Below, in pieces: positions 2,323 through 38,336 of a stretch of DNA of 64,000 nt. The notes beneath the pieces were generated by a model. The model ran no database searches and was not told where the DNA came from. It was given only the letters and a program-made list of their open reading frames with translations. A program made the translations under genes and the position numbers. Numbering within the stretch: the stretch's first letter is position 1; every line of letters starts with the position of its first letter. The stretch covers positions 2,844,699 through 2,908,698 of the forward strand of contig CM082581.2 in NCBI GenBank assembly GCA_040954595.2, in the 5' to 3' direction. This stretch comes from Balanoglossus misakiensis. Lineage: Eukaryota > Animalia > Hemichordata.

Positions 2323-5132
2323 TTAATATTTGCCCCTCGCATACTTTGTGGCCAGTTTCATTTCGGGCGCGTCCGCCTTAGTGCCCGTCGTTTGGTTATC
2401 CAGACTCCGATGAACACCCCTGATGTAGCCATTCCGACGGGCTTGGCCAGTCGGGCTTGTCACTGTGTTTGTAGCACTTGCCGTTTCACCGCGGTGGCAA
2501 TCAATGTTTACATCTGGGGGTTTATCTCCTTCACCATCATCACACCACTGCGTGTACTCGTTTTCTGCGCTTACGTTGCTGTTTGAAGGTGTAGCCGCAG
2601 CATCTTCGGTCCCTGTGTCCCGCTCAGGCTGCATGTCAGCGGAACTGTGCTTCCCAATTTTGTAAGTAGCCCTGCGACTAGCAGCAGTGGTGTCCTTACA
2701 TACACCCGACGAGTTCTCTCTAGAACCTGTCATTTCTGTATCACCAAAAGGTGTAGCATTCAGGTCATACGATTGGTCACCGGTTACCATGACATCGTGA
2801 CTGCGGATTGACGCTTCTGGTTGTGCATGGTGTATATCATGATGGAAGTTGTCTTCTCCAGATAACTCTTCTGGATTTTGTTTCTTCTGGCTTTCTTCAA
2901 GGGGGTACGCTTCGCTGGAAACCTGTTCATCACTTTCCTCCTTCACGGGAGAGTGGGTAATGTCTTCTCGGCTACCTGGAAGAGAAATTACACCAACAAA
3001 ATTCATTAAATATGCAAAAACCCGCAGATGCCTCAGAGATGGATTCAGCATTATCTAGCAAGGTTGCGATCATAGGCCTAAAGATGGACGAACAGACTAA
3101 ATAAAGACGGACGAACAGACATAAAAACGGACGAACAGACACACAGACATCGCCATGACACCATAGCCCTCGTCACGGTGACGTTGTGTGACAACTGACA
3201 ACAGCCATTTGCAGTTGGTTGTCAGTAGCATCCAGGTGAGGGCAACGCCCGCATGGACTTCTCACCTCTTAGTGACATTTTCACTCTCTCCAGCTGTGCA
3301 TGATACATGGCCATGACTGCATCCCTTCTACCGATACATTCCAAGGCTTTGATCAGATCAGACACGCTGTAGTTTGGTCTGTCATGTTGCAAGTCCGTTA
3401 TGATCTCCTCTGTAGGGCTTGGAGCATCCTTGAATCGTTCCTGCAGGTCAATCAAGAATGTCATGATTAAGGCCTACATGACTCATGGAGCTCCATGCAT
3501 GACTCAAATACGCACCTCTAGCACATGCAAAAACACATCAGGCCTAACAGGCAACGAACCAAAATCGAAGGAGGATAATTTGCTGACCCCACACTTACCC
3601 ACTGGTAACCGAGCTTATCTGCTAATGCTTGATAGAGCATAGAGCATAGAGCTCGTATCTGTAAAGTGGTCAGATCTGACACCAACTCGGGAAGCTGTAA
3701 CAAAAATCTAGAATATAGGCCTATACCGTTTTTTATGTTTGTTTGTTTGTTTGTTTGTTTTTATAATGTCACACCAGACAAGGTAGATTGCTTTTGTTTG
3801 AGCGAAAGAAAGCGTTGCACGCCATGTATGTTTGGTTGTCAACTTACATGCATTTGCACTCTAATCCAATCACATAGCACGTTAGCATATACACATGCAA
3901 TCTCCAAAACAATGGACACTAATTTGTAGGTGGCGTAAATGACTGAATCTAAGCGTTATTGCAGTAATTCTCACCTCCTTTGCCAAAACTTCAGCATTAT
4001 GTTCTTCCTGGGACAAATAAATACAACAACAAAAACAACAGTATTGATATGTGAGAATTGACATTGGCGCTCACTACTAGCCCGATAACACAGAATCACT
4101 GAAAAGTCCATTCTGAATACGAGAACAAGAATACCTATATATCAATATCAATATTAAAATTGCGTCTTATTCTTAAATTACACCCGTGCGAATCAGAAAT
4201 GACAGGATGGGCTAACCTTGTGTACGACAGTTTCGGGGAATATTTCATCACTGTCAACGACTTCCGACTTTCCTGTTACGACGTCACTCACTACGCAAAG
4301 CCGAAAATTGACGTTTGCCCGCTTAGTTCCGTTTTCCCGCTTGCCACGTTGTCGTAGCTCCTCGAAGTAGGCCAGACTGAAAATTTTTTCGAGTTCCTCA
4401 TCTGTCACGAGAGAGTTGATGGTGTCGTAACCCCAGTGGGATTCTGGCAGCAAAGACCCGTCATCACCTGTGTCAACATACTTGGAGAACTTCAAAGCCA
4501 GTTCTCCCGGGCACGATTTGCTTACCTGTGAATAGTGATGCCAAAAGAAACTGTTTGTGGGATTGCAGAGGCATTAATTGGGACACGATAGTTGCTGATT
4601 CGATACAGTCGTCTGTTTTCAATACATGTAATACGACACATTGTGCAACACAATGACACAAACCTAAACATTTTACAAACTAAGGCAGCATAATGGAAAT
4701 CTTCGTGACAGAACTAACAATACTGATCAGATATTTTTCTAGGCTACCTACCTGAAGGAAAAATTCACCAACACCAATCCTTTCTTTCGGCCCGAACAGA
4801 TGAATAATGACTTTATTACCTTGGACAAGAGGGATGCCCTGAAACGAAACATTGATGAGGGAAAGTATGTATTTTATTTTAGAATGATAAGATGAAAGAG
4901 GGGGCGGAGAGAGAGAGATGGTATGAGAGAGAGAACGGAGAGACAAACTTGAAATACCCACTTTTGCTTTTAACTTTCGTAAGAGTTGTATCGTCGGCGC
5001 CACATACTTTATCTTCATATCAGAAACTCTTCCTTCATAATTTGTGTCACATAAACGTTTCAGTTTGCGAATATCAAGGTGTGGATAATCGGCTCCAAGC
5101 GCGATTTCCAGCTCTTCGGCGACCGCTTCCAT
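2323..5132 (-). CDS. Multi-exon protein (~500 aa): N-terminal helical segment, Rel/NF-kB dimerisation (IPT)-like region, death domain, acidic disordered tail
   Basis: Phase-compatible GT-AG exons 5132-4962, 4838-4752, 4525-4217, 4007-3975, 3694-3599, 3440 (or 3473)-3266, 2975-2323. Death-domain pattern ALADKLGY...SPTEEII...YSVSDLIKALECIGRRDAV; IPT-like GEFFLQVSKSCPGELALKF and RANVNFRLCVVSD. Confidence 0.7.
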
Positions 5133-5375
5133 GATCTGCAGATAAACACAAATAAGGCGAAAACTGCACTTAATTGTCAGCCAACCTTGAAAGTCTCACA
5201 AAGTACATGATTTATTACTATTTAAACAATGAATTTCTGTTTACCACTTCAGAAATGATGTCAGCAGAGAAAATAGTCTGAAATTCGGATCACGTGATGA
5301 ATATACCGAGAAAACGAGACGGGGCTTTGGTGTCCGGTGTCTGGTCAAGAATGTGGAATTAATTACGCCGATCTC

Positions 5376-6778: not shown

Positions 6779-9700
6779 ATGGACGAGGAGCAGTCGGCCA
6801 AGCTGTATAGAGCTGTCACAAATCTACGTCATCTGATCGAAAAAGGGACATTGGTTTTGGTCATTGGTGAAGAAACATCCATACTTCCCAAACCAGCCTC
6901 ACTTGACGATTGGTGGAACGTAATCCCGGAACTAGACGACGAGGTTTGGTTAAATAATTCAATTATTTCTACATTTACTGTAAATACAATAATCACATGT
7001 TGAATTGTCGCCAAGTAAACTCACCCGAATGATGCGAAATATAACCCTTTTGACAATTTATACCATTCTAGCTTGCTTAAATTCAAAGCCAACTTTCAGT
7101 TTCGGTAAAATTTGCATTTTGAAAGCGCTATGCGCATGTGTCAAAAGCTGTGTACGTGTACGGAGGTACATCGCCAAAGGTCAATGCACCTGTTGCAAAA
7201 ACTGCAGATATGTCCTGCAAAGAAATATGAAGAAATTGGCCATTTACAGACAAACTGGCTAGACTGCCCTTATCACCTATCACCTATATATGCTTGTACG
7301 GAGATTCTCGATGGCAGGAATAAGAGGGACACAGTCACGAGGAACTTTTCAAAATGGGGTCAAAAGCTGACAACGTAGACTCTGTGCATAGACATGTATG
7401 CCGTCAGTTCAACCGACCAATTATTTTGAATACATACCACAAAGTTACGTCATGGGTAGCTCGACAATGAGTCATCCGAACAAAGCATGCACATAAAGAA
7501 GGTGAGAGAGTGCCGCTGAAAACGACCTTGTTAAAACGAAAGGGAATGGGGCTACGTTATTTTGAAGAAGAACTTGTACTAAGAAAATGAGAATTTACAA
7601 ATTACAAATTATTTACAAATTACATGCATGATAAATGTTCTTAACATCCAGGTTAATCTCTGCATTAAAATTCCAGAAGGTTCCTGATATTCTCACACGG
7701 AAAGAAAATGAGTACATGTCTCAACAGCCTCAAGGCCAGTCACGCTTTCATAACGTTCTCAGAACACTTGGAAGATTCCCTCTAATCATTACAACGAATC
7801 TTGACGAGTTGCTGGAACGACTTCTGTGGAACTCAGGGGCACACGGTGAGAGGCTGTACCTCAAACAGGTGAGAATGCCGTCATTTATAGGTCAGTAGGC
7901 AAAAGGTTACAAAAATACTTCCAAGCAGTAAATCGGTCCAGCTGTGATACGTTTAATACATGGCGATATCAAAACCAATAAAATATTATACTAGGAAATC
8001 CACTCGAACAAAGTGAAAGATGCAATGTGCTTGATTAATGATTGATGAAATCTAAATTTGTGATTTTAGTTCTACTGGAATATCAATTGTTGGGTTGGGC
8101 TATGTTCAAGATTTATAATAAACATTTTATGTTAACCTATCTGTTTATTTTAGATTTCGCTTTTGGAGAAACACTGGCCGAATTATCATCGTGACGTCAT
8201 CATCAAATGTTTTGGCGATTCCAGTTTCCAGACCAGAGTCAGCGTAAATATTCTCTTTTCATTGAATTCATGTCCAGGCGTTCTGCTTTACAATTTCCGT
8301 TGTACATTATAGCAAGGAACGAACATGGATGACAACTATTCAAGATTAGATGCTGTCGTAGTAAAGACTACGATTCGAGCAATTTGTATTATCCTTACTC
8401 GCAATATAGAGTGTACTGAAAGCATAATGAGGCGGGAAAGAGTTGAACTGGGACTGCTGCCTGGGGTTGAACAACCGCGCATGTGAACTTCGTATGAACC
8501 TCTCAGCTATGTTTACATTTGTCACGAGGAAGGCCTTAAGGGAACACGTCATAGCAGGCTTTGTGAAAACACCTGTGGTGAGTAACACAAATTAACAAGA
8601 ATGCAAGGCCCTTGAAGCTGTCCATTATAATTTCATATTCATAAACATTACGTCATATCCTTATTCATTACACCTCAGAATTCAAACCGGAAGTATTTCG
8701 AAGAATTATGCCAACAACACGAAGATGAAAATGTAAATTTCCTGCGGCGAATATTTGACGAAAATAGTGTGCTGTTCCTTGGCTGTGATGCTGGTCACGA
8801 AATTTACAAAAAGTTTCTGAATAAATTTGCTACTCAAAGCAAGGTAAAAATAATTATTCAGTTTTATTATGTGAATCATTCCAAGCAAAGTCTTCAATGA
8901 AAATCATATTCAAATTATTTTGTTCATCTCGTTCACGAGAGAAAGTCTTATTTGACGCAGTTGGTCTAAAATCTAGTTACTCGCCTCCTGATCGTTTCAT
9001 TTGCACAGGGCAGTCACTATCTGTTCAAAAGCGCTGAAGATGGAAGTAGAAGTTTCATCCAAAATGGTAGCCTGTCAATTTTGGAAGCTGATTTGGAATT
9101 ATGGGAATTCATGCAACATCTCAGCAGCGGCAAAGGCATCCGGGCGATTCAAGATATACATCCGGGCAAGGTGCAGTGACGTCATGTGGCTGTTTGTTAT
9201 AACTGATAGTACACAGTACTCGGTATAATTGTCTGATAGTTGGCCTTACAGAGAAAATCAACATGAATTCTGTTTTTAGGGGCACAAGCCTATCGGGCCC
9301 AAATTTCGGATGACCTTTGACCTACTTCCCTATATATTGGCATCCAGAGCAGGTACAGACTTGGCGTTTGGAGGATTGGCACTAAAATTGAAAAGCCAAA
9401 ATTGGGGCACAAGTCTACATGTATTTTGAAGAGAAGACTTTTAAATTCTTTTCATGGATATGAGTCATCATATGACCGGAACTTGTCACAATTTTTTTTG
9501 GCAATTTACACATGACCTTTGACCCAGTTTTCAAACAACTAATTATATATGCATATGCCATTTACCTCCTCTTGTAAAAGTACCACAGTCATGTATTTTG
9601 TGTACATGGGTACCACTGGTGCCAGGACATGACACAAATATTTTGGTAATTTTGGCAATGACCTTTGACCTATTTCTGATACATCATTTTTCTGCATATC

Positions 9701-12700
9701 TAATTCCAGGCTACAGCTCTGGTTGTGGTTGGACATGGCCCACTATGGGGTCAAAATTTTATGGCCCAATTTTGGGTTACCTTGGGTGACCTTTGACCAA
9801 CTTTCCCATATCTCAGCATCCGGAGCAGTTAGACCACTGGCGTTTGGGGGTTTGAGCACATAATACAGTCTTACACAAGACCTCATTAATTATGTGCATA
9901 TCTAATTCCAAGCTAACCAACAGGGCTAGAGGTTTGGTTTTTGTTTGACATGGACAAGTACGGTGTCAAAATGTTTTGCCCAAATTTGGGGTGACCTCAG
10001 GTGACCTATGACCTACTTTCCCATATCTTGGTATCCACAGCAGATACAGCCTTAGCATTCGCTGGTTACCATGGGAACCGCTTGTGCCCCGCCAACGCTT
10101 GCAGCTTTAATTTAATATTTATTATCATATCCACATACTTCTTGTTAAGGTGTGTTTTTCAGCGTATTTTTCCTCTTCAAAACGAAAGAGCGTGTTGAAT
10201 TGTAACTGGTTCCATTGAACACAGAATTATCAAGATTATCACGAAGATTTATCAACAAACTCACACATAAAACTGCAAAGTTTAGTAAATTAATTACCTT
10301 GTTTATCGCAAATCACCCAGTACTGAAAAAATGTTCTTCTCCGTTTCAAGGTCTACGAAGTCTCGTTTCTTCCCACGCAGCGCGAGAGTTACCTACGTCA
10401 GCAGTTAATGTTGGAACAGAACGCCACCGAAATAGACTTCCACACTACCAGTATAACGAATGCATTGACGACCAATGAACTTATGGAACAAGTATCAAGA
10501 CCGTCACTCGTCAACATTTACAGAAAAGACCCGTTTGGTGTGTTGATTTCAGTCTGTTTATGGGCGACTGAAATGCTTCTGAGGGATTAGAATCATAACA
10601 GCAGAATGATGGTTTACAGGAAAACAGGCTGGGCTGGCATTAAAATTACTGTGTTAAACACAAATATACACTGACAGCAACTGTATTTTTACATTTTACC
10701 CACTGGTACAGAATGAAAGTTCCAGCATTTGGTAATTTGTCCAATTATTGAAACGGCCAGCGTAAAGCACCCTAACCGAGAGAAGAGCTATATATTGTGT
10801 CTGTGAATGAATGAATGAATGAATGAATGAATGAATGAATGAATGAATGAATGAATGAATGAATGAATGAATGAATGAATGAATGAATGAATGAATGAAT
10901 GAATGGCTCTTTAATGAAGTTTGTAAACATTTCTATTTAGGGAGCTACTCGGATGAAGAAGTGGACAGGGCACTCAAAGCGATGTACGATCGAAGAAATA
11001 ACCTAATTCAGGTGCGTGAGATCATCAATTTTAATTTCCACTAATACCCTCGTCAACAATACATGACCATATATGATCAAAATTCAGAATTTTGTGGAGT
11101 GACTGTGAGTGGACATGAAATATTCGACGTTGCTCGAATCGCTCGCTATATTTTGTACATTTCTATCACTTTGATATGTTCTAGGCTATACAGTCTGGCG
11201 TTAGAGTAATCGCCATCTTTCTGTACGAAAGCGTGCTCGCTGAGATCGACCCCAACAAACAGAAGGACGAAGAGAAGCGCAGAATGGCGTTGAGAAAGTA
11301 CGCTAAGGCCATCTTACTCTGCAATACACTTTTGAAAACGAAGAGTTCCCTAGAGTTGCTGATGGTAGAGGGAGGAGACCGCGAGTCTGAAGAAAGCCGA
11401 AGATTGAAGAAGGAAACGTTTGCCATAATAAAATTAAAAGGTACCTCTATTAATCTTACGTGCTTGAATGACCTCGCAATCTTCTCAGTTGACAAACTCA
11501 GAAGGGGTTTGTTTCGGGTCGTGTGCAGTTGTCTCGATGGAATGTCTTTGATTGGTCAATTCCTCTTCAATGCCCTCTTCAAACATGTGTACAACAAACC
11601 ATGCGAAACGCATGAGGATATGCCTTCCCTGAATCGTAGAATATGTCACCGTAAGATTTGTATTTATTGTACAGCATCTGAAAGATAACAAGTTATTCTG
11701 GCAGGCATTGACAGGAAAGTTTGTTCCTTGATTTTCAGGAGGTGTTGACGAAGCCATTTGCTATGCGGAAACCGCCACTGCTGGTCAAAAGAACGTGACA
11801 ACTCACCTGGTGGTTGTGAACGGCGAGGAGGTGGCAAGGAGGAGAAAGATCTTTGACGCCAGCCGTGAAGGCGCCTGGGATTGCGATAGGACTGTGCTCA
11901 AACTAACAGCTGCTGTCTTACAGCACAACAAGGGAACGAATGCGATTGAAGTACGTGTGTTTACAAATGAACGAAATTGAATATAGTTTCTAATTTTCTA
12001 AATGATTCTCTTGGACTGGTGAGTTGTCGCTCTTAATCATTCTCTATCTGTCTGTCTATCTGTCCAGGCAGAGGACTTGAAGCGTTTGAACAGCCTCCAT
12101 GATGTTCACCTCATTGTGGATCAAGACAACGTCATTCCAAGCAAACTTGAACCGCTGGGTAAAGGACAGTTCGGAGAGGTGTACAAGGTGGTCGACAAGA
12201 AGGGAAACACCTACGCCCTCAAAGTCTTGAAAGAAATGGACGAGGCAGACTTCACTCAGCTTGTTGACTTCAGAAGGGAAGTAGAGACTTTAAGGTACGT
12301 CGAAGAATCGGCGAGGCTAGTGTTAGGAATGACTTCAGGAGGGAAATTCTAATACTGACGTTTTCTTATATTTTTTAACCCAGAAAAGCGTCACATCCCA
12401 ATATTATCAAATTGGATGATGTGGAACGACAGGGTAACAGACTCTGTCTCAAACTTGAATTCGTCGATGGATGCGATCTCCGCAAAGTCATTCTACCCAA
12501 GGACGGACGACCTCAACCGCAGAGTAAAGAATTTGCCTTCAGATGTGCGACTCAAATTGGCGATGCGCTCTCGCATTTACATAAATTGGGGATTGTTCAT
12601 CGTGACGTGAAAGCCGAAAATGTTCTGGTAAGTTGTCTTGCATCATGTCTCTTCCATCTTGTGCTGGATCGTTCGTTACACCGATTTTAATCTTTATTCT

Positions 12701-15700
12701 TTAAAACTGAATAATTTTCTTGTGTCCTTTTAAGATAACACGAGATCAGCAAACGTTCAAACTTGGTGACTTTGGTCTGGCACGTACCACCAGAGGAACA
12801 CTGAGTAAGAAGACTCTAGTTGGATCGATGCGTTACATGGCCCCAGAAGTCAAGCAATCAGGGAATTACTCGGTGACAGCCGACGTATTTAGCTATGGTA
12901 CGAGAAGTCTATTTTGTTTGACTGTAAAGACCGTAGAATATTATTATCATGGGAAAGTGTATCCAGTATTGTCTGTATTGCTTTGCATACTTGGCAGAGA
13001 ACTTTGCTGACGCCTTGAAATCCGTAGAAGTATACATGTATATGTAGCAACGAGCTTGAAGTTTCGTATCCAACTATCTTACATTACATGTAACGCAATA
13101 ATCTGCCCCTGGTAAATGTTCTCTTATGTGTGTACACAGAACATTGTCCCTGAAGACGATGTATAGTTGGTGGCGAGGTATTAACGTTGAGATTCTGTGA
13201 CACTTGGTGTATTTCCTCCTTTTAGGTCTTATGCTGCTTGAGGTTATAAGTGGAGATTACGTGTTTTCAAATATATTGGATGATGAAATTGTCTACGACC
13301 AGAAAGAAACCTTGGCTCCACCCATTCCGGTAAATCTCCACTAAATTCCTGCCTAGCCTGGTAATTTTTTCTGACTAATTGCAAAGTGGTGATGTGCATT
13401 TATACACTCTCCCTTCCAATAGTGTAAGTTTTAAGTCCTTGGTATGTACGAGTGTTTTGGGTGACGCTTCCTTGTCTACTCTGTTTCATTCAGGACATTT
13501 GTGAATCAGTACATGGTTCGCAGATGAAACTGGTGTTGACAATGTGTCTGAAGATAACTCGAAATCGCCCCAAGATGGAACAGATCTTGGAGATTCTGAC
13601 GACAACTGAAACTTCCCAGCTAAAGGCACAGTCTAGTTACGGTCATGAAATCGAAATGCTGTGTCTGGGAACTGGAAAAGGCACAACGGGTAAGGGCTTA
13701 CCACACTTTATCGAACGGGTGTTTGTCAGCAATAGTTATTCTATACCCCGCGACTTAGTCCTTTGTATACATGTAACCAAGCCCAGTTTGGGAAAAGATG
13801 TTTCTTACCTCAACTACTGACTTCTTTTTTTCTCAACTTTATCTTGTACTATAAGCTGCCCTTTTTGGAGAGCCAAGTTCGTCATTGGCTATTCTCGTTC
13901 GCGGCAAACCCTTATTGCTTGTAGATGTTGGCCTTGGTGTTTTGAAGTCTTACAGAGAGCACATAGGTAAGCACTTCTATTTTACGTACGGAATATTGTT
14001 GGAACGTATTTCACTGCTTTTTCTGCAGTCGCACTACATTTCCCTAGAATGATACTTTATTTTTTCACCTAATTAGGCGATGAATTGCCACCAAAGTTAT
14101 TCATCACTCATAACCATCTCGACCATTCTGGAGAACTAGCCCTTGGACTCTTCTTGACAACGGAAAAGATGAAACAGATGCAAGTGGCAGGAAAGATTTC
14201 GATCTTTGCTGGACCCGAAGTTGTGCCTCGTCTTAGAGATCATCGTCTGGATGAAATCTATAGCGCAATACCAAGAGTAAGTGTATAGTTTATCATAGTG
14301 GGACTCAAATTCTTGTGCAGGTGTAACTGTGGTGCATACTTGTTTATGTGTGGAGGTTTGCATATGGGAATTTAGGTAGGCCTAGTCTGGCATGTAGGTA
14401 CAAAGACGCATAGAGCTATAGGAAGTTCGACTCGCCATGTTGACAGACACTGGTATTACACATAGGCACGTTGGATTGCATATGGTATCTATACTCAGTC
14501 ATGCTCATGAATTATAGTATCGTTGGCGATGAGTGTTTTGGATTTAAGTGTTAAACGGTTGATAACTGTTTAACATGGTGATTTTGATTATAGGATAAAT
14601 TAGATGCCTTTCTGAAATGGGTAGAATGTGTGGAAGACACCGCTGTGTTTCTTGATCAAAACAAGTTGTTTTCTCTGAAAGCCTACAAGAGTCAACACCA
14701 AGAGACTTGCTATGGTAAGAAATGATAACAAACAAAATCTGGGAATCTTCGAGTGGTGTTGAAAGTTTTTCGTAAACACGATAACTTCTCAAGATCTTGA
14801 CATGGATAAATTTGTAACACGTTGGTCAGACTAGTTCCGTGTTACCATGTGTTGTAGATGACGAGTCGTGATTACTTTGTATTTCGACTGACAGGATTTG
14901 TTCTGTACTGCGAGGAGAAACCAATTCTTGGCTACACAGCCGACTCTGCGTACAACAAGGAATTGTACGACCGAATCTTTGTAGCCCCAACAGTGGTTGT
15001 AGATGCACGTGTTCAAGGGAACACAGAACATGCCTCGGTGAGTTACAGAGCCAAGCATTAAACAGGTTCCTCTTGACTTTGCACAAAAATATATGATGAC
15101 GTCATACTTACAGGCAGAAGGAACTAAGACACAGGATATAGTGCGATATTATTTACCTATGCCCGGAATGGCTGCACAGTATGATTCATGAGAAATCGGA
15201 CAATTTATTTGCAGACTAATAAAATATTCATTGCTTATTTGTAACAGTTTGATGAACTTCTGAAATACCTGGAATGTAGAGAGGTATGTTTTCCTCTTCT
15301 CTTTGTATGATTGATGTGTATGTTTGACAAATAATGTGCGTGCATGGGCGTGCTTTCAATTCTGTGGAAAATAGTTCAATGGTGACGCTGTATGTGCCCT
15401 GCCCAGTAACGTTGGTTAGATGAGACGAGTGCTGCTCGTCTTCATATCTTCAAAGGAAATGTTCTACATGTGTATGTCGTTTGAATGGACTAATTCTCAG
15501 AAATTATATCTTATCATTGTACCAGGTGAAGACTAGCCCACATGTTCTGGTAATCGGCTATGGTACGGCTGACGATTGGCCCAATGCCAAGGACATGCCC
15601 CGAATAGACCAAATGCATCGTGGTACCACTTATACTCTGTGGCCACTTGAAGACGCCCGAGAAACCTCTCCCGTGAAGAGACAACCAAAATATAAGAAAG

Positions 15701-15717
15701 TGGAAGAAGCAGTTTGA
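6779..15717 (+). CDS. SIR2_2-like / DUF5753-like / Ser-Thr kinase / metallo-beta-lactamase-fold fusion protein (~1,090 aa)
   Basis: Phase-compatible exons 6779-6943, (7460-7501?), 7677-7868, 8154-8243, 8679-8843, 9009-9170, 10351-10537, 10941-11011, 11185-11440, 11739-11950, 12068-12294, 12384-12627, 12735-12897, 13226-13329, 13494-13689, 13856-13966, 14077-14276, 14594-14714, 14895-15037, 15248-15283, 15526-15717. Motifs IITTNLDELLE and VLFLGC (SIR2_2); GKGQFG/YALK/HRDVKAEN/DFG/YMAPE/DVFSYG (kinase); LGTG/VDVG/THNHLDH/YTADS (MBL). Confidence 0.85.
9270..10070. repeat. Degenerate intronic repeat rich in TGACCTTTGACC units
   Basis: Recurrent tgacctttgacc...ttcccatat...gcatcc blocks near 9311, 9511, 9660, 9788 and 10002. 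Confidence 0.55.
10805..10904. repeat. (GAAT)n microsatellite
   Basis: Pure tetranucleotide run in an intron. Confidence 0.97.
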
Positions 15718-16404: not shown

Positions 16405-16615
16405 CATGACGAGATGCCTATACACTACCAGTCAAACGCAGGTCTTTCAGTTTACACTTTGTAGTGCATAGGCGACAGTCACTAGAACCACTGCTGGACA
16501 GCGGTTCTGTATGATAACGGGTCACATATCACTACGTTGTGAGTGATTGTTTTATTGGGGCTTCCCTCTTCTTCAGGTCTTTGGAGTTCTCAAGTACATG
16601 TATAGAAGAGACGCG

Positions 16616-19509
16616 ATGACCTCTACGATCAGATTCATCTACTTCCTGGTTTGGTCGGCAGCCCTAAACTGCTGTGCAGCTGACGTTGGTGAGTAATTCT
16701 TCATCTGTAGAAAATCACAGCCTGACCACTCGTCGGTGTCAGGTGTGTGGAGTGACCGGCGTTTGCTGGCATGGCAAAAACCTTCCACTCGGACTCATGG
16801 GTGGCGTGTAAACTGTCTTAGAAATATATAAAACGGATATGAAAGGGACTCTCTTTCATGACTTCCCCTTTCTTCTAAGACATGGCACTTGCCCCGACGC
16901 GACTGTGCTTCGAAATGGGAAGCTTGCGGGCGCCTTCGATGCAGCTGGTATCAGAGTTGCCATGTTTTAGCTGATGCAATGATATGCAGCCAATTTTCAA
17001 CAGGTGCACCCGTCAGTACCTGTGTTGCCTCATGCATGCTTGAAGGGAAGAATACGCACCCCAATAACATACATTTTCTTCATGTCACTGCTGTCAATTC
17101 AAGAAAATTGACAGTGCATTTCCATGTCAAGGCGTACAGTATTTAAATTTTATAGGGAATCGGTGAGTTTCCTTCAAAGATCACTCACGTCTTTCAACAT
17201 CTTCTTTCAACAGGATATATTTGGCACGTGACTGATTTTCACTACGAAGTGAATTACACTGCGGGGGACTACCCCGAATCAAGTTGTCGAGATCTTGGAG
17301 GGGAGACTCCTAATTACTGGGGCGATTATAGGTGTGACTCCCCCTGGACTCTCATCAATTCCTCAGTCTATGCCATGCAACAAATTGAACCCAATCCAGA
17401 CTTCATCATATGGACTGGGTAAGGCAGGAAGCATTTAAACTAAATCCTAATATCTATTCTTTTTTCTTTGTTTGAGTGTAAAGAATTAGGTCTTTATTGA
17501 TGCATTGATGCATCACAAACATGTATTATGTTCAAAGCCAATACCAGTTCTTGTATGAACCTTTCAGAGATGATACTCCTCATGTACCAGACGATAATTT
17601 GGACACGGACAAAGTATTAAATTACATTTGGAACTTGACAGCCATCTTGATCGAGGCATTTCCAGGCAGGAGTGTATTTCCGGTACTCGGTAACCATGAC
17701 TACCACCCCAAACACCAGATGCCGCCAGAACCCAACCCTGTCTACGATCAAGTCGCTGATTGGTGGAATGCGCACTGGCTGAGTCAATACCCTGGTGCAG
17801 AAGATACATTCAGAGAAGGTTTGACCTTTTTTGCTGGCAATGATAATCAATTGAGATTAAGAGTGAGTGAATGAGCGAATGAATGAATGAATGAATGAAT
17901 GAATGAATGAATGAATGAATGAATGAATGAATGAATGAATGAATGAATGAATGAATGGAGGAATATATGACTGACTGACCGACTGACTGACTGACTGAAT
18001 GAATGAATGAATGAATGAATGAATGAATGAATGAATGAATGAATGAATGAATGAATGAATGAATGAATGAATGAATGAATGCAGGGATAAATGAGTGAAT
18101 GAATAGCTTCGTGGATGGGTTGATGGATGGATTGACGGATGTATAGTACAAGATAAATTACAAAATTACAATATTTGAAATGCATGTTTATATCTATTTA
18201 GCTGCGTATTATACAGCGGAGTATCAACCTGGACACAGAATTGTTGGGCTTAACACTGTGTATTATTATACAAACGACAAAGTTACTGCTGATATGGAAG
18301 ACCCTGGCAACCAGTTTCAGTGGCTGGAAGACATCCTGGGGAACGCCACCCTGACCAACGAAAAGGTATGTTATTAAACCACGCCATGATCAATGCAGAC
18401 GTGTGACACACTTTGGATGAGAAACAGTACCACCCTTGTTCTCTCTTATTCTTTGTAGGTATATCTCATTGGACACGTACCGCCTGGTGTTTTTGAACGA
18501 CACGCTGGAAAGTCATGGTACTATCCAAAGTTCAACGAACGGTACATCCAGATCATAAGGAAATACTATAGTGTTATTAGTGGGCAGTTCTTTGCTCACC
18601 AGCATGATGACAGCTTTAGAATGTTCTACGATGAGCAAGGTGAGCTTTGTCTTACATTTAGGCAGTTTGCACACACCTGCTGATACATACGTAAACTTCA
18701 AGATTGCTTAAGCCTTATGTACTACTAGTTACTTGGTTTTTTGCCAGAAAAACAAAGCCAACGTTTTGCTGACAAGAAAAGTAGTCCCGAACGTTTCACA
18801 AAATGTCGCCAGTACAGTGTATGTTTACTACTATTGCCTCACTAGACGCCCTTCCTGATTGGTGTACACGATACCCCCACGATGTGTACGCAAACGTTTG
18901 GCAAATCCACCACGACCTCTCTTTGGTAACACATGCCGTAAAGAGGCCCGTGTTTACGACGGTGACGAGGCTATTATGATGGTCATTATTGTCTTATATA
19001 ATACGACAGGCAATGCTGTGAGTTCGTTGCTGCTGGCCCCTGCTGTTACTCCCTGGAACACCACATTATCAGGAGTTGGGCCAAACAACCCTGGCATCCG
19101 CCTTTTAGAATTTGACCGAGACACCTGGGAAATATTAGACATCAAACAGTACTACCTTGACCTTTCGACAACTGACAGCTCCTCTCTACCAGAATGGGTT
19201 TTGGAATACTCAGCCAAAAACGCCTATGGTATTGGTGACGTCACTACCAGTTCTTTGCAGACTCTAGTAGAATCGTTCAACGGAAGCGACAGCGATAATT
19301 TCGACAAGTATTACCTGTACAACAGCGTCAGCTACGACAGCAGTGAGTGCACAGCGCAGTGCAAGACCGAACAGGTCTGTGCAATCACCAAAGTGGATTT
19401 CGATGAGTACAGTGCCTGTCTTGGTGGAGACACCACGGCCGGCGTCGATTGCCTTATCTCATCGTTATTCTTGAAAGTCGTACTCATCATTGTGCAATTC
19501 TTCTTCTGA
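16616..19509 (+). CDS. SMPDL3: Acid sphingomyelinase-like phosphodiesterase (SMPDL3 family) with signal peptide and hydrophobic C-terminus
   Basis: Exons 16616-16688, 17214-17418, 17568-17818, 18202-18365, 18459-18639, 19010-19509. Calcineurin-like motifs TDFHY, WTGDDTPH, LGNHD, GHVPPG, FFAHQHDD, plus WGDYRCDSPW and APAVTPW...NNPGIR. Confidence 0.93.
17868..18103. repeat. (GAAT)n/(GACT)n compound microsatellite
   Basis: Tetranucleotide arrays in SMPDL3 intron 3. Confidence 0.95.
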
Positions 19510-22869: not shown

Positions 22870-25800
22870 ATGCCGATCGTGGTCGAACCCAAGAAGCCTA
22901 GAATGTGTACCGGCATGCGTTTCCTTAACTTATGGATAAATATATCCCTTTCAAACTTTATAAACTGACAGAAATACCTTGTTACCTCATTGAAGGCGAT
23001 CCGCATTTCAAAATGGACGATAAGAGTGGGTACGACCACGTCCTCATTGCTAGAAAAGACAGAACTTATCTTGGTTTTCATTAGGTTGGTGTGTGTTTTG
23101 TTTGATACACCCTTCCATTTGGATGGAAGCTATCTGCATATGTCTACCACACGATAGGGTATTGCCTTACGACTTATACTCGAGACGTGGGTGTACATGT
23201 GTACTATGTATTCAATACATAGATTACATGTATACTGGTGGCCCTCTGCACGTATCCCCGGTAAGGCGGGCGAAAAATAATTGGTCGGGTATGGAGCGCG
23301 CGGAATCAGCCGCATATATCTTGGCAGCGCTGTCGGTAATTACCGGTTATTTTTTGGCAATAGAGAAACTTCATTTTAAGGCCAGTAACCTCTCTAGTGA
23401 TGCTAGCATCCATGACATTTGCTATCCCTCATGATAGAAAGGATAAACTCCTGGAGCTAACAGAAAGCATTCTCACTAAGAGAGCCGTCCCATTATCTCA
23501 AATCCAAAAGGTAATGGGGAAATGTATTTCTTTCACGCTCGCCATCCCATGTGCGAGACTATACATACGACAAATGGCAGGGGCAGTAGCAAAAGCCCCA
23601 AAAACGGCAACATATTTGGTGCCAATTAGAGGCGGCGTACGCGTGGAATTAAATGAATGGAAAATAGTCGTCAATGCCCAGCCATTTACATGGCTGACTA
23701 TGTCGCATGCAAAGTTGCAGCTTGTTACTGACGCTAGTTCGCATTCATGGGGTGCAATTCTGAATCCCGACCGTGATGAGGTAATGATGCCATTAAAGAT
23801 CGATGACATGTGGGACAAAGAATGGAGACAAGAACACATAAGGGACCGTTCAGTTTGTACGGCTGGGGGGCGTCAAGTTTGTGTCATGGGTTTTCAAAAT
23901 CAGGCCGACCCCCCCCCCCCTTCACCCAGGACCAAAAGATGATGACCCCCCCCCCCTTTGACAGGCCAAAAAATATGATGACCCCCCCCCCCACCACGCC
24001 GAAAACATTCGCCGTCCTGATCCTATGTACACTGTATGCAATAAAGGGAATGAGGCTTCCCACACCTCAATTCTAAATTTCTTAAAGTAATTGAAGTTTA
24101 TAGTAGTATATCTTTGCAATAAAAATGAATTATGAATAAATTAAAATGACAAGTCAATGCAATAGTTGGTAGGATTGGTAAAACAAGACAACTGGCGGGG
24201 TGGGTGTGGGAGGGGGTGTCCCCTGCAACATGAAAATTTTTTGTAAAATACGGTGCTCAAAATAGCATTTTAATGAACTCAAAAGCAAATTAACTCAATA
24301 TTGGGGAGGACCAATTTTACTTTTGCCACTCCACTCAAAGTATGCATCGGTGTTAGAAAATGTTGTAAAATAAAGGGCGCAAAACTGCAATTTTGTGGAC
24401 TCAAAAGCAAAAGTTTTGTGGCAAAAGTAGGTGACCCCCCCCCCCGTAAACTTTTTTTTTAAACGATGACCCCCCCCCCTTTTGGACTTCAAAATTTAAG
24501 TGACCCCCCCCCCCTGGATTTTGCAGCCCCCCCCCCCTCCCCCGCCGCTACGTTTACGCCACCGTTGAGTTGGCTGTTTGGTCCAAGGTTCGCCATTCAC
24601 TAAGGCTTGTCAATTTTGGGGACCTCAGTCCGACATAATTTCCGTTACAATATGCAATGCTAGGCTAGATGTATTCTATTCGGATTCTATGGTGCTGGTA
24701 AAAACTTAGAAGGGAGGTTATCCCGGCTCAAAATCTACGAAACTGAACCAAGTTTTGAAGGCCATTTTCCACTTCTGCGTAAAGCAGAATATCCAGTTGA
24801 GGTTAACACACATCCCTTCACTCAGCAACAGAGCGGATGACGCCTCCCGAGAAATCGCGATGGGCGTAAAAAAACTTAGCCGATTCCGTGTGGAGGAAAA
24901 TAGAACAGAAAATGTAGACGCCATGGCCAAGCAATCAAATGCAAAATTAACGCGTTTCATTGCCCATCAACCGTAACCTGGATGCGACGGTCATGAAGGT
25001 TTAGATTTTTTCTGCATACATCTTCAAGAATAATGACAACCTGTATAAATACCCCGTTTCCAATCAATCAGCCGTAGTCGCGCATGTAATAAAGCAAAGG
25101 TTGCAAGCTACTCTTGTTTTAGAGTTTGCTGGATCCACCCCCGTGTGCTGGCTCGTGGTAAAAGAATGCGCATCAGAATACTGTCGAGTGGCGACTAAGA
25201 GGGATAAGAATGCTATATTAGTCTCGGTAAAGGGGGGCTTTACACCGTACATCCTGCGTGGTGTTCTCGTCGCGGCGCACTTCGGACACTAGAGACATAT
25301 ATGTATAATGAGCGCGCATTCTTGAAATGTAAGTCAAATATAATAGTAAAATTGATTAATAAAAACAACAACAACAGCAACAACTAAATAATGTAATAAC
25401 TATTGGTGTTTTATATATGTTTAATTTAGGGCTGTTGGTTATGTGGCGCCCCGATAAAACCCAGTAATGCCGACGACCAAGCCAGCAATTGCCATATATG
25501 CTCGGCGAAATCGCTGAAGACAACAATAGGAGCTAACCCCAAAACGCTTCAAGTAGACGTCCACCAGATTGACTCTCGTATGAAGGAGATTTGGGGAGAA
25601 AAATCACCATATGAGATCCAAAAGGAAAATATGATGCGAAATTTGGAGGAATTCCAGCAACTTTTGTCTGACAGAAAAGGACTAACAGAAGCCTCCCCAA
25701 AAGATATTGTTAGATTTCTGATATTCAAGAACAAGGGAGCACGTACTCAAGTGCATAATGAATTGTGCCCGTATCTTGGTGACACGGCTGACTGTAATAG

Positions 25801-26020
25801 GCGCTGCGGCTGCCCCAAACGGCTTAGGTGTAGTACAATTATTAAAGAATGTCGTTGCAAAATTAAGTTCGTTTTATAACGCCATGCACAATATTGGCGT
25901 ATCCAGTTAAAATCCCGTGGCTTCTATTATGGTTGATAGATATGTTAAGAAATCAGCCGAAGAACAAGCAAGAGCACTCATCACCTCAAAACAGGCGGTT
26001 GGAGATCGGAAAAGACAGCT
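22870..26020 (+). mobile_element. Decayed DIRS-type (tyrosine-recombinase) retrotransposon: RT, RNase H and ALOG-type YR N-terminal domain fragments
   Basis: PIVVEPKKPRMC, KMDDKSGYDHV (RT); LVTDASSHSWGAIL and THIPSLSNRADDASRE (DIRS RNase H); DIVRFLIFKNKGARTQVHNELCPYLG...CGCPKRL (ALOG zinc motif); frameshifts and stops present. Confidence 0.8.
23840..24560 (+). mobile_element. G/C-tract-rich non-autonomous DNA element (Harbinger/PIF-like MITE) interrupting the DIRS RNase H
   Basis: Begins TA-AGGGACCGTTCAG, splits the RNase H frame; its 23900-24290 part recurs inverted at about 53170-53500. Confidence 0.6.
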
Positions 26021-32704: not shown

Positions 32705-35700
32705 ATGCCAGGAAAACTAAAAGTACGCGTGATAGCAGGCAGAGACCTGCCTGTAATGGACAGGGCCAGTGAAAGGGCCGATGCGTTTGTTGAGGTAAGG
32801 CAAGAAATTAATACACACTCACAGTCATGTTATTGATTGAGTTGTCATGCCTTGTATGTGTTGTATTTGCATGTAACTGTCGTCGGTTTCCTGAAACTTG
32901 TTGTAGTGCCAGAGTGCAATGCGTGATATCATGCAAGTTGTACGTAACTTTGTATGAATTTCCAGCGGATTTGAAGCAAAATGATGCATGTCATTGTCAT
33001 CCTTGTGCGGTAAATGATCCCTGCATTTTTCGAGTGCCAGAGTCGTCTAGTACTAAAATAGGAGTGCAATGCTCGGCCAGATAGTAGAGCGGCATAACAG
33101 ATTGATTGTGCATTTTGTGATAAAAGCACCAAACTTGGCTGAGATGTGTGTTAATGTGTACTAAACAAATTCAGATAGCGAGCCACTAAATATATGTTGA
33201 AGAGTTTCCCTGGCAACAATTTTTTGTTCATTTTTCTTTCAAAATGGCCGCCAATACAGATAATCTCACTCATAAAATAACAACTGTCAAACACCAAAAT
33301 AAATTCAGATTACAATATTTGAAACAAGAAACTGTGGAAAGAGTAATTTGCACAGTATTTAACATCACTGAACTAGTTATGGGGGTAAATACAGGTTCAA
33401 GATTCTTCAGTCGCTAAAGAAATTCAAGTTTGGTAATTATAGCTTAACAAATTTAGTTAAAACAATGTTGTTATTATTATTATTTATTTATTATCGAGAG
33501 CCAGCTCATATAAAAAGGACAAGTATATACAAAATTACAGCCAACACACAGACATTAAATAAAAATAAAAAACACACATTGAGAGACATTAAGATACAGC
33601 TAGTAAGGTTAAAAAGTCTAAAAATTCAAATGCAGTCAAGAAAGAATCTCTTCCAAAACGTACTATGATACATTATAAAAGGGTTGATTCCCACGACAAT
33701 AAGAGAGTTCTTGCTCTTCCACAACCTAAGATAAAATTTTGAGTGCAGAGTACGCTGTTTACAATCAAATGTTAAAATATTGCTATGAACAAAGGTATTA
33801 GAAATACTAATCCTTCTGTTGATCCCTAACAATATCCTATAGCTGTTGTTATATGCAACTCGGACATCATTTAAGCAATAACTATTAAAAACACTCCAAA
33901 GGTGGGAGCAATACATAGAAGAACAAAAAACTTGAAATAAACGAATTTTGACTTTATAAGTACAGTTCCAAAAATTACGTATTAACGAGTTGGCTCTGGC
34001 ATAAAAAAGCCTCATTTGTCGTTTTATATCGTCGCTATCGTCTCCATTGGTATTAAAAATAACCCCCAGGTAAGAGTGCTTGTTAACAAACAACAGCTTC
34101 TCCCCATACAAATACACATGTGGGATCTTCAAATTATTAAACTTTTTAGGGAGAATACACAGACATTTAGATTTAATTGCATTAAAAACAATATCATGAT
34201 CATTTGCATAATGGGTGCACACATTTAAGAGATTATTAATTCCTTTCGCACTGGGGCAGATCAATACTATATCATCTGCATATAACAGATGGTTCATACA
34301 TTTACCACCAAGATGACACCCAATATTTTTTTTGACAAGTAAGTCACTAAGCTTGTCGACATAAACTGAAAACAGACGCGGGGAAAGTATGCTCCCCTGT
34401 CTTACACCATTGCGAGTATTAAAACTCTCAGAAAGAACTGTACCCCATCGAACAACAAACTCTTGTATAACCATAAATATATAATACATGTATTATAAAA
34501 GTGGCCTGGCATAACCAAAATTTTCATAACATTCCTGCATTTTGTGATAAAAGTGTTAGTTTAACAAGTGATTCATCCCTCATCAATGAAACTCTGCCAC
34601 CAGGCTATAGCATCATCAGTGTTCCGCGTAAAGGTCGTGGGGGAGGCATCGCTACGATTTTTAAATCTTCACTGTTAGTGTCACAATGTCCACCTTCTAC
34701 CTCAATCAAGTCGTTTGAATTAATGGAGGTACGTATAAAAACTCCATCGTCGCATATCACACTAGCCACGGTTTACCGTCCTCCTCCGAATAAAACAAAT
34801 GGTTTCACTGTTGATGACTTCGTTAATGACTTCACTGACTTCTTGTCTTCTCATCTCACCAACAACGCCCCTCTTGTCATCACTGGCGACTTCAATTTTC
34901 ATATTGACAATCTGAACTGCCCAAATGCCCGGAAATATCATGACATTCTGGAGTCGTTTTCTATGAGTCAATTGATAACTTCTCCTACACATCGTGCTGG
35001 CCATACTATTGACCATATCATTACTCGTGCTGATGACAGTACCATCGCTGATGTCCGAGTTGAACCGATCCATGCGATCTCTGATCATTTCCCAGTGTTA
35101 TTCTCAATACGCAATTACTCTTACGTTAGAAACACGCGTAAATCTGTTACATCAAGGGATATGAAATCCTTTTCCGTTAATGGTTTCGCTGCTGAATTAT
35201 CTGCATCCATCCGCCTTCAACCCGATGCTGACGTATCTACTAATTGGGATTTGCTTAAAAACACTGTTAGCGATATATTTGATCGCCATGCACCAACCCG
35301 TGTGAGACTAGTGCCAAATAGGCGACCAGTGCCATGGATTAATCAGTCAATCATCGATGCCCGGTTGAAAAGAATGAAGGCAGAAAAAATGTGGAGAAAA
35401 TCTAGGTTGGAAGTACATCGCCAGATTTACAGGGCCTGTCGGACCGACGTCGTTCGCCTTGTGGATGCTGCTAAAAAGAACCATTATGTCGGCCTTGTTG
35501 ACGAGTGCTCAGGTAACCAAAAACAATTATTCAAGGTCGTAAAGGGACTGCTTGGTCACAATAACACATCCACTGTACTACCAAAACATGATGATTCTCT
35601 GGAATTAGCAAATCGTTTTGCAAAATTCTTCATTAATCGCGTAAAATCACTAACTATAAATATGGGCAATTCCATTCGACATCATTCACAACCACAAACT

Positions 35701-38336
35701 GAATTGAAATCCGATTGTCGCCTTAATGCCTTTGAGCCTACAACAGCTGATGAAATTGACAAGGTTATTCGTGCATCGCCTTCATCTACTTGTCGCCTTG
35801 ATCCGATTCCTACCAAGATCTTCAAACATTCTGACATTTTACAAGTTTTGTTACCACATATCACAGAAATCTTCAATAACTCTCTGCAGTATGGTGCTGT
35901 ACCTCCTCATTTCAAGGAAGCCATCGTTAAACCTCTACTTAAAAAGCCATCTCTTGATCATGAAGTTCTCAAAAATTTCCGTCCTGTATCCAACCTGCCG
36001 TTTTTGTCGAAGATCCTGGAACGTATTGTTGCCAAGAGACTGACTTCTCACATTGTCAACCATTCATTGGACGAGCCTTTGCAATCTGCTTACAAGCCAG
36101 GACACAGTACTGAGACTGCTCTCCTCAAAGTAACAAATGACATTTTGCTTGCTCTTGATGAAAAAAGAGATGTTTTCTTGGTATTACTCGATCTTTCCGC
36201 AGCATTTGACACTGTGAACCATACCATTTTACTCAATCGCTTAAGAGACCGCTTCGGTCTCTCAGATACTGTTCTCATGTGGTTTAAGTCATACCTTTCC
36301 AATCGTAGTCAGTGTGTACTTGTAAATTCCACCCAATCACCTTTTTATCCGCTCGACACTGGGGTACCACAGGGATCAGTTCTTGGTCCCATACTTTTCA
36401 ATATGTACACGTCTCCATTAGGTGAATTAGTTCAAAGTCATGGTTGTCTTTATAGTTTTTATGCAGATGACTCTTCACTTTATATGTCTTTTAGTAAAGA
36501 CAACGCAGCAAGAACTGTTTCAAATCTTGAACTTTGTATTTCTGATGTTAGGTTTTGGATGTCTGAAAACTTCTTGTGCTTAAACGATGATAAGACTGAA
36601 TTTGTTATTTTCTCTGGTATTTTGGGTGATCTGTCTGCTAGAGGGATTTCAGAAATTCGTGTTGGCGATTCTCTGATTCCCGTCCATTGTCAGGCTAAGA
36701 GCCTTGGAGTGATCCTTGACTCTTGTCTGACAATGAAGCCACATATTGGACAGATCTGCCGCTCTGCCACTTTTCATTTACGTCGCATTGCGCTTATCCG
36801 CAAATATTTATCTCATTCAGCTACAGAGCAATTAGTTCATGCATTCATTACGTCTCGAATTGATTCATGTAATTCACTTTTATTTGGGCTCCCGAAGTAT
36901 TCAATCAACCGTATCCAACGCGTTCAGAATATTGCTGCTAGAATTGTAACTCGTTCTAAAATCACCTGTCACATCACTCCAATTTTGTATCAGTTGCACT
37001 GGCTACCTGTTACAGAGCGTATTGTTTTTAAGATGTTAGTTCTCATTTTTAAATCCATTCATAAACTTGGTCCAATCTATCTTTCTAGCATGACTAATCT
37101 ATATGTTCCATGTCGCAATTTAAGGTCAGCTGATCAGTTCAAACTCTGCCCTGTTCGATCACGCACCAAGAGTTATGGTGATCGTGCTTTTACTGTTGCT
37201 GCTCCAATTCTTTGGAATAATCTTCCACTCACCATTCGCCAGGCACCAGACTTATCTGTTTTTAAATCAAATGTTAAAACTTTACTTTTTAAATCTGTTT
37301 TTTAGCCATTTGTTGTATTGTACTTTTGCTTTAAGCGTCATTGATCACATTTTTTTGTGGATACTGACGCTATACAAATAAATTATTTTTATTATTATGT
37401 CGCCGGGAGTTCTTCCACTTTTACCCGGGCAGTACTTTTCTATTGTTGAGATCATTGCCATGCATAGCGCCCTCACGAGCCTGCAGGGGGAGAACGTCCT
37501 ACATCATGGCGTCCCTCACCATGCAGGCAAGTGTATTTGTAGCGTCCAGATTTCTATCGAATATTTTCTATGTAAAGGTTGGCATCCATGCCCCATGTTA
37601 TACCACGGACAAAAGTAACATTTTGAGAACACTCGTTGAAAGTTTCAGTGTTTGATGTTGGATATTTTTCATGTTTTATTCCACTCTGTACTTACCATTT
37701 GTAGGCTTGTGTGCAGTGCCTATTGTCGTGCATGTTATTCCCATGTGTCAGTTCCTGACCATTTCGTACTTACCTGCCAATATATCGTTGTTCAGTGGTT
37801 TCCATACAATTTAAACAAACAGATATGACTACCTTTGGTATATCAAGCTATTTTATTTAGTGTTTTCAGAGTTTTGTAAGCTTCACACAGGCCATGTAGT
37901 GCGTCACATGACTAGACACCCTAGCTTACTGTGGATTGTTGAAACCCCATTTATTGAACCCATAACTCAGTGTACGTTCTTTTCCCTTCTACATCATGGC
38001 GTCCCTCACCATGCAGGCGATGCGGAAGAAAATAAAACAAGCAATGTGAAGCCATAACTGGTGTCGGCTGAGTTTATTATGTGTGAGCGGTACTGTGACA
38101 CTGATCAACAGAAAATAACACAACGCAATGACAATAAGACAGAACTATTGAAGTACAGAACTATTGAAGTACAGAAAATCAGTGCCACATCTGGTGCCGA
38201 GACCAGGATTGATCCACAGTTACGACCGTATCCAGTTTATGTGTGTATGCTGATTCAGCCAGCGGAAGTCCAGTGTATGCAGAGTTGCTGTATTGTGTGC
38301 GAGTTGTTGACTGCTCCACAAGGAACTTGCCTGTCG

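Follow-up and report, generated by a model that had tools for sequence, protein, structure and literature searches.

Antiphage SIR2 effectors, among them ThsA (Thoeris), Dsr1/Dsr2, LmuA, and Avs5, combine an effector with a C-terminal sensor, and these sensors are SLOG, Macro, or TPR domains. To our knowledge, no named defense system covers a layout in which SIR2 is joined to a sensor of the phospholipase D (PLD) fold. DUF5753 (PF19054), an uncharacterized domain carried by a large class of Streptomyces regulators of antibiotics and development, presumably owes the description "ligand-binding" to its Pfam label. Passages of the literature that name DUF5753 do no more than place it at the C terminus of XRE regulators, giving neither fold nor ligand, and the word "ligand" does not occur in PMC10364602. 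Among eukaryotes, the sirims (FAM118B/SIRanc, clades A to E) carry SIR2_2, are of probable bacterial origin, and are patchily distributed; the fusions reported for them are to NACHT/NB-ARC with repeats or to Macro (bioRxiv 10.1101/2024.09.18.613514). The main text of that preprint uses neither "kinase" nor "cnidaria," and its Table S4 may list the Lingula or lancelet proteins of the family described below.

In this study we analyzed a 64,000-nucleotide stretch of the Balanoglossus misakiensis genome (the window), in which a gene with SIR2_2 at its N terminus is fused, unlike the reported sirims, to a kinase. A sequence-only reading of the window had likened a central domain of this gene to the DUF5753 domain of WhiJ/Scr1-like XRE regulators, an essentially bacterial family, and proposed that an ancient horizontal acquisition now acts as a sensor beside the kinase. 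That reading overlooked the upstream SIR2 as part of the same module, as well as the predicted PLD/nuclease fold. The WhiJ/Scr1-like XRE-DUF397 regulators comprise an HTH and DUF397, whereas the animal gene has neither and is a fusion of SIR2 and kinase instead: a search of the locus for an N-terminal XRE HTH or an adjacent DUF397 gene found SIR2_2 at the N terminus and a sphingomyelinase-like gene as the downstream neighbor. The SIR2 module that contains this DUF5753-related pseudonuclease domain, common to bacteria-type proteins and invertebrates, is apparently undescribed. The combination of SIR2, central domain, kinase, and metallo-beta-lactamase (MBL) was not described in the full-text literature searched, which mostly excluded subscription journals, and passages of PMC7159879 and PMC10952713 contain no description of a fusion of SIR2, central domain, and kinase.

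Gene model and genomic setting

The gene (Table 1) has 20 coding exons with AG/GT at all junctions and encodes 1078 amino acids without internal stops. It aligns collinearly with Ptychodera flava P0002 (82% over 1077 columns, 2 gap positions) and at 74% with Glandiceps P0001, bearing out the earlier description of an intron-rich animal gene; all peptides quoted in that description were found in the window, in four AG/GT-bounded exons that splice in frame within the model. The domain order was taken from Pfam matches on P0002, where SIR2_2 spans residues 93 to 215, the kinase 529 to 781, and the MBL fold approximately 820 to 1020, with no credible Pfam match between SIR2_2 and the kinase. Identity to P0002 is 94% for the kinase, 88% for the central domain, 77% for the MBL, and 74% for SIR2, such that conservation of the central domain exceeds that of SIR2 and the MBL. 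The gene is embedded in ordinary animal DNA, as the sphingomyelinase-like gene, the LINE-type open reading frames (ORFs), and the LTR retrotransposon in the window indicate.

Table 1. Features of the window, with positions counted from its first nucleotide
Feature	Position	Strand	Content and basis
Exon-like ORFs of upstream gene	2323..5195	-	Head-to-head with the kinase gene; without Pfam match
Whole gene	6779..15717	+	Order SIR2_2, central domain (predicted PLD fold), Ser/Thr-type kinase, MBL hydrolase
Degenerate SIR2_2 (antiphage-type sirtuin), exons 1-5	6779..9170	+	Pfam and motif alignment
Central domain exon 1 (187 nt)	10351..10537	+	First helix, strand 1, conserved T-x-x-x-T-N loop
(GAAT)n microsatellite	10805..10905	.	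In intron between central exons 1 and 2, noncoding; seen directly
Central domain exon 2 (71 nt)	10941..11011	+	Helix with invariant Arg (10991)
Central domain exon 3	11185..11440	+	Strands 2-4; putative HxK position = E-T (11413-11418), placed by topology, without residue-level superposition
Central domain exon 4	11739..11950	+	YAE strand, conserved His and Asn, terminal helices
Protein kinase domain, exons 10-14	12068..13610	+	Pfam and motifs
Metallo-beta-lactamase-fold hydrolase, exons 14-20	13644..15648	+	Pfam and motifs
Acid sphingomyelinase-like phosphodiesterase gene	16600..19509	+	Multi-exon, directly downstream; ASMase_C E 4e-33
ORF fragments	23364..25879	+	By eye like DIRS-type or other transposon proteins; without Pfam match at E 0.01 (fragment at 23364)
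LINE-type reverse-transcriptase ORFs (n = 2)	33626..37305	+ and -	Opposite strands; + strand ORF of 942 aa with endonuclease domain
LTR retrotransposon	38481..44227	+	gag-like ORF and 1488-aa protease-RT-RNase H-integrase ORF
ORF fragments	51872..52822	-	By eye like DIRS-type or other transposon proteins; without Pfam match at E 0.01 (fragment at 51875)

The SIR2 domain is recognizable but degenerate. P0002 scored 52 bits on PF13289 (SIR2_2; cut-off, 24.5), and two window exons matched it weakly. In the window, G-E replaces G-A-G (6866), the Asn motif is kept (7791), and Phe occupies the position of the catalytic His (8211); the G-E in the Rossmann motif, the absence of the catalytic His, and the retained Asn recur in 11 of 11 animal SIR2 sequences. 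This histidine is described, in the passages seen of PMC12700824, as important for the activity of ThsA and SIRT2.

Both C-terminal domains have their characteristic residues. The kinase motifs (GxGxFG, VAIK-type Lys, HRDxKxxN, DFG, and APE) are intact, and the best PDB sequence matches of the P0002 kinase were the animal MLK kinases MLK1 and MLK4, which makes it probable that the kinase joined the gene in eukaryotes. The MBL retains HxHxDH (14106) and the downstream His/Asp metal ligands; its best PDB matches were 1zkp and 7t28, and PF23023 is precomputed on P0001, P0002, and P0004 to P0007. Scores on the cyclic-nucleotide phosphodiesterase model NF041851 (32.6 bits, E 5e-8) and on RNase Z (31.9 bits, 7e-8) were about equally weak and both far under the cut-offs, so that cyclic nucleotides and RNA are both candidate substrates. 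The intact metal ligands are a likeness to the Apyc1-like and RNase Z-like hydrolases of PF23023, from which the animal MBL differs in being fused to a kinase; Apyc1 we take to be the name for both PF23023 and PDB 7T28.

SIR2-fused relatives and the link to DUF5753

A full HMMER scan of 1.84 billion proteins with an animal-only profile of the central domain gave 90 matches at E ≤ 1e-3, 50 of them animal-like and 40 in a distant group of metagenomic proteins. Thirty of these 40, and all 27 that are at least 480 residues long, carry SIR2_2 upstream of the domain. No HTH is listed for the SIR2-fused proteins, and the variable N-terminal additions include EAD11, CHAT, TIR_2, trypsin, and a PknB-like kinase; fusions to EAD11, CHAT, TIR, and trypsin are typical of prokaryotic conflict systems. 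The animal and distant-group profiles aligned in hhalign at 99.95% probability; a return score of 118.9 bits is partly circular because the distant group was picked by the animal profile. Of 18 distant-group proteins scanned, 15 had a SIR2 that matched the ThsA, LmuA, and Dsr1 profiles, and the His motif KxHG is present in 24 of 27 distant proteins versus none of 11 from animals. The group shares with ThsA, Dsr1/Dsr2, LmuA, and Avs5 both the SIR2 type and the layout of an effector with a C-terminal sensor; it differs in that its candidate sensor is a domain of predicted PLD fold, and the animal proteins differ further in a SIR2 without the catalytic His. These proteins point to an unnamed SIR2-sensor family that is testable for phage defense.

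An organism is given for only 1 of the 20 distant proteins looked up, a member from an Acidobacteriota metagenome-assembled genome (MAG), so that for the rest we infer a bacterial source. Two distant proteins, P0093 and P0096, contain the domain but gave no SIR2 match; in P0093 (343 residues) it is joined to EAD11, which indicates that the domain can also move by itself among conflict-system architectures. A word-based search starting from P0059 yielded just 2 further proteins. The domain profile found nothing in 401 genomes of one bacterial phylum, that of G001, in a search run without a positive control, and the animal-domain profile had no match in viral contigs; phages likewise gave no match.

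Several candidate homologues were set aside. Two plasmid tblastn matches, H1 (E 0.5) and H32 (E 0.04), gave no score on three profiles and were attributed to chance. The single match in a nominally bacterial genome, a locus binned in a GTDB Dysgonomonas MAG (JAVBJR010000587.1, L001:1-3389), was rejected as a bacterial homologue, being intron-bearing eukaryotic DNA: it is a copy of the animal-type gene whose central domain has two extra introns relative to the window, and such contamination could mimic a bacterial match. The 21 metagenome loci, mostly 60 to 95% identical per segment to coral P0004 and mostly intron-bearing, were assigned to host DNA.

PF19054 itself, scanned at E ≤ 10 with HMMER filters that discard most matches above about 0.1, was matched by none of 19 window exons, 9 full-length animal proteins, and 7 domain stretches. 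The best distant homologue reached 21.6 bits, short of the 23.4 bits that Pfam requires. Since no animal copy gives a score with this model, the central domain is not a DUF5753 member. Weak matches, all below the cut-off, came from 4 of the 40 distant proteins, two of them spanning positions 5 to 177 of 178, and P0123 gave a fifth.

The relationship emerges from more sensitive comparisons against 13 DUF5753 sequences from actinobacterial plasmids (2 loci found through PF19054 and 11 of the 12 loci fetched among 30 listed tblastn matches, L032 being omitted for want of annotation). On the HMM of this alignment the window domain scored 13.4 bits, which none of 300 shuffles reached (best shuffle, 10.4). 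In hhalign, 7 animal rows gave 56% probability over 182 collinear columns, and 11 rows gave 21% with a score of 29.7 versus a shuffle maximum of 30.1; because this lies within the block-shuffle range, the animals alone give only a hint of a relation. The distant-group profile reached 91% (score of 47.6 versus a maximum of 21.7 in 40 block shuffles), and the combined animal and distant profile reached 93.6% over 186 columns (52.3 versus 19.2 in 40 block shuffles), with reversed alignments scoring 16 to 17. The block-by-block parallel noted earlier is therefore reproducible, but it stands clearly beyond chance only when the distant homologues are included. In DUF5753, the LE-x2-A and GLLQT blocks correspond to central exon 1 and the RQ block to exon 2.

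Structure comparison pointed the same way. When residues 510 to 736 of the distant protein P0043 were searched against the Atlas, DUF5753 was the top match and accounted for 6 of 10 rows (TM scores of 0.68 to 0.71 by query, model versus model); the other 4 rows were unnamed or HTH-fused clusters, the 10 rows together spanned TM scores of 0.68 to 0.72 over approximately 194 residues, and the DUF5753 clusters were 99 to 100% bacterial. These profile and structure matches of the distant group indicate that the resemblance to DUF5753 is a real but remote homology linked through the SIR2-fused proteins. The central domain and DUF5753 are alike in motifs collinear over approximately 185 columns, in lacking HKD, and, by way of P0043, probably in predicted fold; the central domain differs in falling under the Pfam cut-off, in being approximately 60 residues longer, and in its separation from DUF5753 by a long branch. 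Given the SIR2-fused bridge and a PLD/nuclease fold without HKD, the closest relative is a SIR2-sensor module and not a Streptomyces XRE regulator.

Predicted fold and candidate role of the central domain

An AlphaFold2 model of the P0002 domain, which is 88% identical to that of the window, was built from 51 alignment rows (pLDDT 91.8, pTM 0.89). Compared by VIA-align with 48,161 chains, its top 24 rows were all of the PLD/nuclease fold (Z 11.8 to 6.6), the earliest clearly unrelated rows appearing at Z of about 4. The best row was SauUSI (Z 11.8, rmsd 3.2, 153 aligned), with NucT at Z 11.7, TrmBL2 at Z 11.6, and, at Z 10.1, the sugar-binding domain of TrmB (rmsd 3.1, 129 aligned). Foldseek returned NucT, the SauUSI nuclease domain, TrmBL2, and FAM83 as best PDB matches (E ~1e-4), and viral PLD-fold proteins headed the list from BFVD (E ≥ 1.3e-3). 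The fold search thus assigned the predicted model to the PLD/nuclease fold, with the structural match to DUF5753 coming through the homologue P0043. The animal-domain profile had no match among PDB sequences, no solved DUF5753 domain was found in the PDB by sequence, and the Atlas feature search gave no usable match with the animal domain and a chance-level best feature score (0.80) with P0043. We are highly confident of the predicted PLD/nuclease fold, without the HKD motif, and of the remote homology to DUF5753, which would itself gain a predicted fold of this kind and hence a candidate pocket.

The HxKxxxxD catalytic motif is absent from all 11 animal and all 38 distant rows. Polar residues (R, Q, E, T, T, N, R, H, and N) are kept across both groups: the invariant Arg is found in 11/11 animal and 38/38 distant rows, Q, E, N, and R occur in 38/38 distant rows, and His is present in 25/38 distant and 8/11 animal rows. 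Where the distant group has an invariant Gln, animals have Thr or Pro. Judging from the topology of the predicted model, the conserved polar residues may line the former nuclease active site.

We give about an even chance to the reading that a DUF5753-related domain with PLD fold but without HKD entered eukaryotes, together with SIR2, from a bacterial defense-type protein and now serves as the ligand sensor of the kinase. Taken by themselves, a bacterial origin of the module (SIR2 and central domain) is fairly likely, and the sensing of a small ligand is plausible at slightly under even chances. In bacteria, an infection-derived, phosphate-bearing ligand, probably a nucleotide, would bind the former nuclease pocket, and the ligand-bound, dead-nuclease domain would switch the SIR2 NADase on. 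In animals, the NADase output would have been lost and replaced by phosphorylation, with SIR2 retained as a structural or NAD-binding unit; the same pocket would gate the kinase, and the MBL would degrade the signal and reset the switch. The animal protein would then likely be an immune or stress kinase that is gated by a ligand and contains a hydrolase to degrade the signal. This sensor-effector scheme is supported by the architecture, the motif states, and the fold, while the ligand, the activation step, and the immune role are proposed by analogy to Thoeris-type effectors and to TrmB. The C-terminal domains of TrmB and TrmBL2 (archaeal repressor; Z 10.1 to 11.6 to the model) illustrate a noncatalytic use of the fold, with no sequence-level match listed. 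Such an origin would add an animal lineage to the proteins derived from bacterial defense and offer coral and deuterostome immunology a conserved, unannotated candidate receptor kinase. Speculatively, and against the odds in our estimation, an undescribed bacterial one-gene antiphage system (SIR2 NADase gated by a dead-nuclease, DUF5753-like nucleotide sensor) might have been domesticated before animals diversified and turned into an invertebrate immune receptor kinase that responds to a nucleotide by phosphorylation rather than NAD depletion and has an Apyc1-like eraser, the same pocket being the ligand site of the Streptomyces XRE-DUF5753 regulators.

In the main rival reading, ancestry and fold are the same and the role different: the domain might be a scaffold that docks proteins or regulates the kinase, as FAM83 DUF1669 does for CK1, or a binder of a pathogen or partner protein. 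FAM83B DUF1669 lies within 1 of the best VIA-align row (Z 10.8, rmsd 4.0, 148 aligned), and FAM83 domains are described as pseudo-PLD domains that anchor CK1 in the parts seen of PMC6798324. In bacteria, moreover, DUF5753 genes are followed by a small DUF397 partner, which also speaks for this reading. The likeness to DUF1669, however, is at the level of fold only, as Pfam scans of the animal and distant proteins did not match it, and the conserved polar residues are common to SIR2-fused proteins that are mostly kinase free. We consider a scaffold or protein binder unlikely, though it deserves consideration, and prefer a ligand sensor.

Distribution, trees, and origin

The same architecture, central domain included, was found in Acropora, Porites, Branchiostoma, and Lingula, with partial models from Antedon, Anneissia, and Saccoglossus. 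No vertebrate, insect, or nematode was among the named proteins, most of the 50 animal-like matches being exon fragments without a name. Comparing the window to the coral-type locus L016 revealed equal lengths for the first two domain exons (187 and 71 nt), the same phase and residue context at three internal junctions, and matching junctions at both flanks. The intron positions and phases common to coral and hemichordate indicate that the gene, introns included, predates the cnidarian-bilaterian split, and the proposed acquisition is ancient to that extent.

All trees were quick trees. They placed the animals on one side (support of 99 to 100) and the 13 sampled plasmid-borne DUF5753 sequences on their own branch (13/13, support of 100, approximately 3 to 4 changes per column), with no nesting of animals in DUF5753; the backbone of the SIR2-fused group was open. 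An approximately unbiased (AU) test on 33 of 65 rows, with long-branch and redundant rows dropped, could not reject a topology in which the SIR2-fused group makes up one side and the animals lie outside it (p = 0.53), and so neither a nested position of the animals nor the direction of transfer is shown. Uniting animals and DUF5753 on one side was likewise not rejected.

Two distant matches, P0082 and P0086, look eukaryotic and were placed near the animals, with eukaryote monophyly supported at only 28 and a long-branch warning. P0082 (944 residues, on a 685-kb ENA contig) is asparagine-rich and combines, in this order, an MBL that has lost its metal ligands, a degenerate SIR2, and the central domain, without a kinase, which suggests a protist branch with shuffled domains. 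Its MBL is of the same type as that of the animals (27% identity over 243 columns). The exon-like fragments P0038 and P0068 fall between the animal and distant profiles (79 versus 71 bits for P0038) and are possibly from an early-branching eukaryote. These four sequences imply a history that reaches back before animals and may be less simple, and the acquisition of the module probably predates animals as well.

P0082 and the trees, in which nesting of animals in the distant group is not shown, speak for an account without transfer from bacteria to animals, the module being an early-eukaryote one that was widely lost, or some of the "bacterial" proteins being derived from eukaryotes. The distant group, however, has the enzyme in its intact form and is the more diverse, its fusions are to conflict-system domains, the DUF5753 clusters are almost wholly bacterial, and an early acquisition, too, would most simply have come from bacteria. 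We therefore regard this account as improbable and favor entry of the SIR2 module from bacteria.

The WhiJ/Scr1-like source proposed in the sequence-only reading fares worse. If the domain had been captured directly from the C terminus of an actinobacterial XRE-DUF5753 regulator and fused to a kinase, this would account for the collinear motifs and for the Y-x-E of animals, which matches a Glu that is conserved in DUF5753 but is Ser in the distant group, and the AU test does not reject it. That Glu is missing in Branchiostoma and Lingula, however, and PF19054 is unmatched in every animal copy. The animal profile aligns with DUF5753 at 21 to 56% probability versus 99.95% for the SIR2-fused group, the SIR2 fusion is common only to animals and that group, whose proteins list no HTH, and DUF5753 keeps to its separate long branch. 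Direct capture is thus largely refuted, and we give it very little credence. We give slightly less to enzymatic activity through rebuilt chemistry, in which the conserved His, Arg, Thr, and Asn would substitute for HKD, for instance to make or cleave a nucleotide signal: the polar residues are strongly kept, but the His is variable, animals have replaced the Gln that is invariant in the distant group, and no catalytic motif of the PLD fold is retained.

Within corals, the family is expanded in Acropora (P0003, P0005, P0006, P0008, and P0009), where one model has a duplicated kinase and two have a PF27628 C terminus in place of the MBL.
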